A program made the position numbers and the translations under genes. A stretch of 64,000 nucleotides of DNA from Enterobacter phage vB_ECC_MY742: sequence record PV593737.1. The stretch is one strand, 5' to 3'. The notes under the pieces are model-generated. The model had not been told where the DNA came from, searched no databases, and saw nothing but the letters and a program-made list of their open reading frames with translations. This document shows, piece by piece, positions 38,935 to 40,302 of the stretch; position 1 is the first letter of the stretch, and every line of letters starts with the position of its first letter.

Positions 38935-39234
38935 TTAGAAAGAACCTCGGCCTTTGATCGTATTCTGACGACCTTTATTTTCTAATTCAGAATGGTCGAT
39001 TTCATACGCTTGGGCAACACCAAAAGCCTTTTTAACTTTAGCTAAAGAGCCTTTAGACGTAACAATATTAAAAGTATTGCCTTTAGTAAAATCAACCAAA
39101 TCCACTTGTACGCCTTGTTTGCCAAGGCTTGCTACAATAGCATCAACATATTGCTGGTCCAAAGTACCCTGAACACCAATTTGGAATGCCTTAGGTGCTT
39201 TAGCTTCAGCAATAAACTCTTGATAAGTTTTCAT
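38935..39234 (-). CDS. Internal-protein-like capsid-targeted protein (99 aa) with N-terminal CTS MKTYQEFIAEA
   Basis: The N-terminus matches the T4 IPI/IPII/IPIII capsid-targeting sequence exactly. The payload is unrelated to the other copies. Confidence 0.7.
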   Translation of the reverse strand: MKTYQEFIAEAKAPKAFQIGVQGTLDQQYVDAIVASLGKQGVQVDLVDFTKGNTFNIVTSKGSLAKVKKAFGVAQAYEIDHSELENKGRQNTIKGRGSF

Positions 39235-39243
39235 TTTTAATCC

Positions 39244-39537
39244 TTATGCAAACGGGTCGTGAAGTTTGTTACCGACTTTACGGAAGACTTTAGCTGCAAA
39301 TTTGTTAGTTGGGTTATCAACCATAATTTTACGCATCTGGCTTGTAGCTGCAGTACGAGCTGCTTTATAACCAGCGATATTATCTTTGATAGTTACACGT
39401 TTGCCACCAGGCCCATCAACGGTTACTTTATATACGCCTTCATCTTCACCTGGTTTGATTTCTTCAATCCAGATATAGCCACCCTGGACACGTTGAGCCT
39501 GGGCTGTTTCAGTGAGAAACTCTTGATAAGTTTTCAT
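39244..39537 (-). CDS. Internal-protein-like capsid-targeted protein (97 aa), CTS MKTYQEFLTE
   Basis: The N-terminal CTS is conserved. The payload is basic. Confidence 0.7.
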   Translation of the reverse strand: MKTYQEFLTETAQAQRVQGGYIWIEEIKPGEDEGVYKVTVDGPGGKRVTIKDNIAGYKAARTAATSQMRKIMVDNPTNKFAAKVFRKVGNKLHDPFA

Positions 39538-39550
39538 TTTTAATCCTTAA

Positions 39551-39967
39551 TTAGTTGTAGATAGCCTTACCATAATGTTTATACCACTGAGGCCGTTGAG
39601 CAATTTTTTCATCCAGACGTGCTTGAGAAATTTTAAGAGCGTCTAGAGTTGGAACATAATCATTGCGGAATTCAACCGGAATGTCGCTAATATCCTGAAC
39701 AGTAGTGTCCTGGATTTTAAAACCACGTTTTAAGCATTCCGCAATTAAGTCGATTTGACGTTTACGCAAGAACTCGAGTTTGTCATAAAAGAATGTTACA
39801 TGACCAGTACCTAAAATGAAAACTGAAGAGATTTTAAAATCCTTTAGCTTTTTACCATTTTGAACATGCTTACGAACAGCACCGAATACACGAGGTAGTT
39901 CACGATATTCAGCCATCAGATGTTGGTCAGCCAGTTCAGATACTAAAGTTAAGTTAATGCGTGTCAT
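39551..39967 (-). CDS. denV: Endonuclease V (pyrimidine-dimer DNA glycosylase) DenV
   Basis: 138 aa. The product has [35 protein letters not shown]...[10 protein letters not shown] and is near-identical to T4 DenV. Confidence 0.95.
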
Positions 39968-39989
39968 TTTTAATCTCCGTTTGTTTGGT

Positions 39990-40029
39990 ATGAGAGTATC
40001 ATAACACGGTCAAACGGAGATGTAAACTA
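39990..40029 (-). promoter_or_regulatory. Early promoter (AGTTTACA, 17 nt, TTATGAT) upstream of denV
   Basis: The same family. Confidence 0.5.
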
Positions 40030-40302
40030 CTTCTTAGAATAATCTGCCATTAGTGCAGCAATATCACCAAGTTTCTTACCAAACAGATATTCGACTTCAT
40101 TACCTTTCTTATCTACGATCTGCCATTGGCCTGAACCTTTGTTGCCAAAGGTATAATCGCCAACTTTATAAGAGAAGCCACCTACTTTTTTAATAGGAGT
40201 AAAAGTGAAACCACCTTTCTTAGCCAAAAATTCCATCCGACGCAGATCATCGGCATCTTCGTTCAAAGCCTGTTCGGCAATAAACTCATTATAAGTTTTC
40301 AT
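40027..40302 (-). CDS. Internal-protein-like capsid-targeted protein (91 aa), [13 protein letters not shown]
   Basis: The ATG at 40302 gives an N-terminus identical to the CTS. The ORF-track start 11 codons upstream overlaps gene e. Confidence 0.65.

Follow-up and report, generated by a model that had tools for sequence, protein, structure and literature searches.

The locus considered here raises the question of whether four small genes that begin alike and then differ encode proteins that a phage loads into its head and injects with its DNA and, if so, what in the host such proteins would act upon. The genes lie in a 64,000-nucleotide (nt) stretch of Enterobacter phage vB_ECC_MY742 (PV593737.1), referred to below as the window, whose positions serve as coordinates. 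A first-pass annotation had described three open reading frames (ORFs) interleaved with denV and e, together with a fourth copy elsewhere in the window, as sharing the N-terminal capsid-targeting sequence (CTS) of the T4 internal proteins (IPs) IPI, IPII and IPIII. We recovered all four, here called IPa to IPd, with the shared start and with unchanged coordinates (Table 1); the strand, which had been left unstated, is minus for each of them, and the interleaved denV and e were both identified by Pfam, the former also by PHROG.

IPa to IPd are very probably packaged, gp21-processed and injected internal proteins. The residues of the tag, the two loci, the properties of the predicted products, the family annotations, the prohead core genes of a close relative and the equivalence of the IPc position with that of T4 IPIII in a congeneric phage all support CTS-tagged internal proteins with swapped payloads, as had been proposed. 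Tevenvirinae genomes ordinarily have such genes, which belong to a long-described class and are no new kind of element.

The capsid-targeting sequence and its predicted processing

The N-termini of IPa to IPd follow the common pattern MKTY[QN]EF[IL][AT]E. A six-frame scan of the window for MK[TS]Y.[ED]F returned IPa to IPd only, with all four matches at ORF starts, where 0.0025 matches were expected from six-frame residue frequencies; over 200 shuffles the mean was 0.01, and no shuffle had more than 1. The mechanical ORFs of IPc and IPd reach further upstream, to a TTG at 40335 and a GTG at 54563, respectively. A fifth CTS-like candidate, an ORF of 102 amino acids (aa) at 18674-18982 on the minus strand that starts MKRFEEFVIID and falls in PHROG 2749 (unknown function), is without the L/I-x-E motif and was rejected; its CTS-like start is probably coincidental.

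In T4 IPIII, the first 10 residues are enough for incorporation; as found in amber-suppression work, targeting depends chiefly on positions 4 and 7 (Tyr4 and Phe7) and processing on positions 8 and 10 (PMC9026906). The gp21 protease cuts after Glu in L/I-x-E, and Asp at position 10 stops processing (PMC9026906). Tyr4, Phe7, I/L8 and Glu10 are present in all four window proteins, and positions 4, 7, 8 and 10 are also kept within each family alignment. The predicted gp21 sites (arrow, cleavage) are IAE↓A in IPa, LTE↓T in IPb, IAE↓Q in IPc and IAE↓S in IPd, and IPc and IPd have a possible second cleavage site, LNE↓D, at residues 13-15. Cleavage at the predicted sites would yield mature products of 80-89 aa and 9.0-9.6 kDa with isoelectric points (pI) of 8.9-9.8 (IPa, 89 aa, pI 9.5; IPb, 87 aa, pI 9.8; IPc, 81 aa, pI 9.2; IPd, 80 aa, pI 8.9); the corresponding T4 values are 76 aa and pI 9.0 for IPI* and 90 aa and pI 9.6 for IPII*. 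The 10-residue CTS that the first-pass annotation had ascribed to all three T4 proteins is exact in IPII and IPIII, but IPI has a diverged 19-residue propeptide, MKTFKEFTSTTTPVSTITE.

At the nucleotide level, a repeat search and a 5'-end alignment of the ip genes revealed a 42-nt direct repeat in three copies of 100, 93 and 74% identity, which comprises the CTS codons and, in the copies of IPa and IPb, the Shine-Dalgarno (SD) sequence. Aligned with T4, the CTS codon copies differ mostly synonymously (ACT/ACA, CAA/CAG, GAG/GAA, ATT/ATC and GCT/GCC), which argues that selection acts on the CTS peptide and not on the DNA alone.

The prohead core with which such a tag would engage is encoded in the close relative Enterobacter phage vB_EclM_CIP9 (Tevenvirinae, genus Kanagawavirus), to which the window is 95.4% identical over its full length. 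The core genes of CIP9 (gp67-like, gp68-like, gp21 protease/scaffold, gp22 scaffold and the major head protein gp23) are found at 170.7-174.5 kb.

Payload families and single-gene cassette exchange

Downstream of the CTS, the payloads proved unrelated to one another and to T4 IPI to IPIII, in agreement with the first-pass annotation. All-against-all BLASTP of residues 12 to the end, with IPI, IPII and IPIII of T4 (NC_000866) included, gave a best E value of only 0.07, and in profile-profile comparison of three family alignments only the first 13-18 columns aligned. IPc also matched the IPb family in PHROGs (E = 6e-7, residues 1-67); hhalign, however, paired only the first 13 columns of the two, and the match was rejected as a sign of payload kinship. 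Scans of IPa to IPd against Pfam and NCBIfam gave nothing above threshold. The PHROG assignments were phrog_2667 (internal head protein) for IPa, phrog_3966 (unknown function) for IPb, phrog_8765 (internal virion protein) for IPc and phrog_7673 (internal head protein) for IPd.

Homologues were sought by tblastn in 50,697 phage records. Full-length matches place IPa in the Ip7 family, with 94-97% identity to the annotated ip7 products of JS98, VR7 and VR26 and 50% to the Ip7 protein of RB15, and it has relatives in 283 records. IPd is a member of the Ip9 family (180 records), its full-length matches being 81% identical for Ip9 of RB15 and 93% for that of IME08, while IPb (189 records) is 53.5% identical over its full length to the PP01 protein annotated as 'Ip10 internal head protein'. 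IPc has just 42 relatives, in phages of Enterobacter, Edwardsiella, Serratia, Erwinia, Pectobacterium and Proteus; no homologue named IpN was found among the matches listed, so that its membership is that of PHROG 8765 only, and its resemblance to Ip8 is weak (32% over 65 aa, CTS included). In a database of 5.8 billion proteins, each family was represented by 8-17 clusters, all of small proteins of T4-like phages. The RefSeq record of CIP9 labels the counterparts of IPa, IPb, IPc and IPd as 'internal head protein', 'hypothetical protein', 'internal virion protein' and 'ipI: internal head protein', respectively. The four genes had been presented in the first-pass annotation as a diversified arsenal of injected proteins and a prime place for new effectors: their identity as internal-protein families stands, but the novelty was overstated, for they are Ip7, Ip9, Ip10-like and PHROG 8765 proteins, most of them already annotated. 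They differ from the named Ip families in their hosts, which are Escherichia for the latter and Enterobacter here, and in the slot of the Ip7 gene, which lies at the 57B locus in RB15 and at the denV locus here.

In addition to CIP9, similarly close genomes are those of phages Q7622, IME523, ZX14, Entb_45 and Kosakonia phage 305, and comparison among them shows that the ip slots vary gene by gene within Kanagawavirus, by exchange of single-gene cassettes. In Entb_45, a 189-aa orthologue of T4 IPIII (1378-1947 of the compared Entb_45 stretch) occupies the exact slot of IPc, and the two ends at which homology between Entb_45 and the window is lost are the CTS and the denV promoter-like site. IME523 and Q7622 are without IPa, the difference being a clean indel of ~307 nt bounded by TAAG(G/A) and TTTCTAATAAAGG. 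Families have also moved between loci, with Ip7 relatives at 57B in RB15 and at denV here; Ip10 adjoins e in PP01. The T-even internal proteins were previously described as a highly diverse set in which only the CTS is conserved (Rao and Black, PMC3012670, citing Repoila et al., 1994), with which the cassette exchange found here agrees.

AlphaFold2 models, built with the family alignments for IPc and IPb, are compact and confident. The IPc model (predicted local distance difference test score, pLDDT, 85.9) consists of a helix at residues 4-30, five strands and a helix at 78-89, and the IPb model (pLDDT 80.8) of a three-stranded sheet, a long helix and a C-terminal hairpin. Foldseek of the IPc model against the whole PDB returned nothing below E = 0.1, with IPI* absent from the list, and neither the Ip7 nor the Ip9 alignment, used as a profile, had a match among PDB sequences; the predicted folds of IPc and IPb provided no functional lead.

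The payload domain of Ip9 (PHROG 7673) occurs in three forms: CTS-bearing, CTS-less and embedded. The CTS-bearing members include IPd, Ip9 of RB15 and distant proteins that start MKFNEFLTEA, MKSFKEYLTES and MKTFQEFLNEA. The CTS-less members stand alone, are 66-75 aa long, start directly at the payload and come from the 44.5-kb phage SHAK7858, where the gene (SHAK7858_0056) is the first in a block of small ORFs (3010-3228 of the compared stretch), and from metagenomic clusters; for one CTS-less homologue, only an 858-nt contig was found as genomic context. The embedded form lies near the C-terminus of Ackermannviridae proteins of 683-861 aa (PHROG 3867). In one of these, ChubbyThor gp130 (1192-3243 of the compared stretch), the sequence from an internal Met reads MSKPNFLQFMQEKDQLDE↓AF, whose L-x-E↓A motif is like a gp21-type site, a likeness that we note as speculative. 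The distribution of the three forms suggests that T4-like phages may have made a free-standing Ip9 effector injectable by adding ten codons and that the target of Ip9 may not be specific to T-even DNA chemistry. That the Ip9-type domain is a portable anti-defence module whose age and range exceed those of the T4 internal-protein system is an extension that we regard as rather improbable. If it were true, a cytoplasmic effector would have become a pre-loaded one, and the target of Ip9 would be a defence common to phages of different DNA chemistries and not a type IV enzyme specific for glucosylated hydroxymethylcytosine (glucosyl-hmC); in a phage whose cytosine is probably arabinosylated, the four internal proteins could then define inhibitors of uncharacterised defence systems. 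The occurrence of the Ip9 payload with and without the tag provides a concrete handle on the origin of injected effectors.

Proposed mechanism, putative targets and alternatives

T4 genetics suggests that residues 1-10 of each newly made protein (MKTY-x-EF-[I/L]-x-E) would dock it on the gp22 core of the assembling prohead. The gp21 protease would then cut after Glu10 (L/I-x-E), and maybe also after Glu15 (LNE↓D) in IPc and IPd, and a basic protein of ~9.0-9.6 kDa would be kept in the head with the DNA. On infection, this product would enter the cell before or together with the DNA and would act before phage gene expression. The unrelated payloads are interchangeable single-gene cassettes, delimited at one end by the SD and CTS and at the other by conserved flanks, whose swapping between phages and between the two ip loci is shown by genome comparison. 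By analogy with T4 Ip1 to Ip3, each payload may stoichiometrically inhibit one host defence protein that attacks incoming DNA. Taken as a whole, and weighted towards T4-type internal head proteins, this explanation is likely.

IPI* blocks the GmrSD of strain CT596. T4 Ip1, Ip2 and Ip3 each block a distinct variant of GmrSD, a type IV restriction system, and for Ip2 and Ip3 there was no cross-protection (Silas et al., 2025, PMC12373910); the same paper puts the number of additional Ips in related phages at ten or more. On the analogy with these proteins, the balance tips somewhat towards at least one of the four being a specific anti-defence inhibitor, and a GmrSD-family enzyme may be put forward, tentatively, as a possible target. 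An anti-defence arsenal of this kind was proposed in the earlier annotation and is an already published view (PMC3012670, PMC12373910), in which the internal proteins figure as a varied set of defences with nothing but the CTS in common (PMC3012670); it may apply to IPa to IPd as well.

The DNA chemistry of the phage bears on what such inhibitors would meet. A SIS-domain sugar-phosphate isomerase is encoded at 3272-3901, near the DNA polymerase gene (4472-7177), and a 563-aa protein with an N-terminal nucleotidyl-transferase domain at 1405-3096; these and neighbouring ORFs lie in the stretch 1019-4415, and the CIP9 annotation of the same region names an arabinose-5-phosphate isomerase and a phosphoheptose isomerase. 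Kanagawaviruses are among the phages with an RB69-type cytosine-arabinosylation cluster (PMC13326640, 2026), and from its genes the stretch 1019-4415 looks like such a cluster; the phage DNA is probably not glucosyl-hmC. Because the arabinosylation cluster appears to be present, the targets would be nucleases that recognise arabinosylation or defences unrelated to modification, and the relevant nucleases may differ from those studied with T4. The IPIII orthologue of Entb_45 suggests GmrSD-like pressure on this genus too.

A doubtful alternative is that the injected anti-defence proteins are directed against defences other than type IV systems, such as other nucleases, abortive-infection sensors or RecBCD-like functions. 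The sole functional precedents for CTS-bearing internal proteins are, however, all GmrSD inhibitors, an IPIII orthologue in the IPc slot of a congeneric phage points to GmrSD-like pressure, and the GmrSD family is extremely diverse, with few variants tested.

It is unlikely that the proteins are packaged for a generic role, as basic counter-ions or as DNA-condensing or scaffold-assisting head components with no specific host target, which was the historical suggestion for IPII and IPIII. Such a role would suit four predicted products that are all basic, the ~300 copies of each IP in a T4 head and the slower assembly and smaller burst of IPIII mutants (PMC9026906), the contacts of internal-protein lysines with DNA phosphates (PMC3012670) and the lack of reproducible GmrSD inhibition by Ip4-10. 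But it leaves unexplained four unrelated payloads, with confidently folded domains in the models of IPc and IPb, and the gene-by-gene presence, absence and replacement between genomes that are ~95% identical; moreover, all three T4 IPs proved to have specific targets, and the Ip9 payload is found without a CTS in small phages, where a T4-type head component is impossible.

That the shared N-terminus is a recombination or translation-initiation module only, carried by ordinary cytoplasmic accessory proteins that are not packaged, is very improbable, for although the SD and CTS form a direct repeat of 74-100% identity just after which cassette homology stops, and canonical late promoters are missing near the genes, the mostly synonymous differences place the peptide under selection, the targeting and cleavage residues are kept in all copies and in the distant Ip9 members, and in T4 the same 10 residues suffice to package foreign proteins (PMC3012670, PMC9026906).

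Several points weigh against packaged, injected inhibitors of host defences. The exact T4 late promoter, TATAAATA, was not found near any of the four ip genes, so that expression timed to head assembly is assumed, and IPb and IPa appear to lie behind the early-type promoter-like site of denV. The T4 ip genes are likewise without simple late-only control. The gp21 and gp22 genes lie outside the window, and their presence is deduced from CIP9, whose identity to the window is 95-96% throughout both ip loci. Neither in sequence nor in any detectable fold do the payloads resemble IPI*, IPII or IPIII, so that the anti-restriction role is argued by analogy. When ip4-10 were assayed against additional GmrSD variants, no reproducible inhibition was obtained, and an apparent ip7/CLS_011 signal was not repeated (PMC12373910 supplement). 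No experimental data were found for IPa to IPd or close homologues, and literature searches found no virion proteomics covering Ip7, Ip9, Ip10 or PHROG 8765.

Among known systems, IPa to IPd are most readily compared with the T4 internal proteins. They are like IPII and IPIII in their identical or near-identical CTS, including IAE↓A, in the e/denV locus, in their small basic mature products and in that an IPIII orthologue fills the IPc slot in Entb_45. They differ in that the mature sequences are unrelated (BLASTP E ≥ 0.28), denV stands between the ip genes here, and IPc overlaps e and is without an upstream intergenic promoter and SD. IPd is like IPI in that it follows 57B, with a comparable terminator-like hairpin and early-type promoter-like site before it, and the N-terminal helix, beta-sheet and C-terminal helix predicted for IPc match the general description (PMC3012670) of IPI*, whose structure was solved by nuclear magnetic resonance. 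DarA/DarB of P1 and the ejection proteins of phiKZ and SPN3US are also loaded into the head, injected with the DNA and active before expression, and in the giant phages the propeptides are removed after Glu by a gp21-like protease (PMC9026906).

Injected proteins are the first answer of a phage to nucleases that meet its incoming DNA and help to set its host range, a matter of consequence when the Enterobacter cloacae complex is to be treated with phages. The concept goes back to the mid-1990s; like the tag and three of the four families, it has been in the literature since the 1990s, and near-identical genes are annotated. The practical value lies in a shortlist of four small orphan payloads from a phage whose cytosine is probably arabinosylated rather than glucosylated.

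Locus layout and expression signals

Both of the hypervariable ip loci of T4 are occupied in the window, one beside e and denV and the other between 57B and the tRNA cluster (Table 1). The gene order at the former is nudE-e-IPc-denV-IPb-IPa, compared with nudE-e-ipIII-ipII-denV in T4, and at the latter 57A-57B-IPd, compared with 57A-57B-ipI. As context genes outside the ip family, denV sits between IPc and IPb, and e lies directly upstream of IPc and overlaps it. As in T4, the two ip loci are separated by a tRNA cluster, here of nine genes (50419-52673, minus strand). The interval from IPd to the tRNA genes has small ORFs of unknown function, including one at 53983-54174 for a 63-aa predicted membrane protein (PHROG 1692).

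Table 1. Internal-protein genes, neighbouring genes, repeats and putative expression signals, in window coordinates
Feature	Coordinates	Strand	Description
IPa	38935..39234	minus	99 aa; N-terminus MKTYQEFIAEA; Ip7-family internal-protein gene
IPb	39244..39537	minus	97 aa; N-terminus MKTYQEFLTETA; Ip10-like internal-protein gene
IPc	40027..40302	minus	91 aa from ATG; PHROG 8765 internal-protein gene
IPd	54231..54503	minus	90 aa; N-terminus MKTYQEFIAES; Ip9-family internal-protein gene
SD+CTS repeat, IPa copy	39205..39246	minus	42 nt; SD TAAGGA and first 10 codons; reference copy
SD+CTS repeat, IPb copy	39508..39549	minus	93% identical to IPa copy; 303 nt away
CTS-coding repeat, IPc copy	40273..40314	minus	74% identical; upstream part is the e 3' end, not an intergenic SD
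IPd CTS-coding first 10 codons	54474..54503	minus	
denV (pyrimidine-dimer glycosylase)	39551..39967	minus	Pfam PF03013 Pyr_excise, E = 9e-14; PHROG 1183 endonuclease V, E = 9e-62
e (T4-type lysozyme)	40289..40783	minus	Pfam PF00959 Phage_lysozyme, E = 1e-12; CIP9 annotation
Sigma-70/T4-early-type promoter-like site	39998..40026	minus	TTTACA-17-TATGAT with TG; 10/12 matches; consensus match
Terminator-like hairpin after 57B	54596-54577	minus	
Promoter-like site upstream of IPd	54560-54532	minus	TTTACA-17-TACTAT, early-type; consensus match

The start of IPb lies 13 nt past denV and that of IPa 9 nt past IPb, neither with a promoter-like site of its own, and the early-type site upstream of denV is the only one positioned for a denV-IPb-IPa unit. 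The same site marks where the IPc/IPIII cassette ends on the right and is conserved, being kept in Entb_45 and T4. It lies inside an inverted repeat, tctccgtttg ... caaacggaga (39975-40035, minus strand), whose 3' arm includes the SD of denV, and a comparable arrangement at denV is visible in T4 and Entb_45; in transcripts that read through from e and IPc, the hairpin could hide the ribosome-binding site of denV. The ribosome-binding site of T4 gene e is hidden by such a hairpin.

IPc starts within the 3' end of e, with an overlap of 14 nt (40289-40302). Whereas ipIII of T4 and of Entb_45 follows a ~90-nt intergenic region that contains a promoter-like site and an SD, IPc has no such region, and its translation is therefore probably from the transcript of e, which suggests translational coupling to the lysozyme gene. 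At the other locus, the succession of terminator-like hairpin and promoter-like site at 54532..54596, upstream of IPd, resembles in alignment the region upstream of T4 ipI.

Variants of TATAAATA with one mismatch fall only inside coding sequence. One of them, TATAAACA, is contained in a 16-nt direct repeat at 40362-40377 and 39576-39591 (minus strand), whose copies precede the starts of IPc and IPb by 60 and 39 nt, respectively; as both copies fall in Trp-Tyr-Lys codons close to where e and denV end, the repeat may be no more than a reflection of coding sequence. Downstream of IPa, five Kanagawavirus genomes share a conserved GC-rich spacer of ~160 nt (38776-38935, minus strand), which gave no RNA-structure signal (z = 0.9) and no Rfam match and at whose end lies another early-type promoter-like site, TTTACA-16-AATTAT.

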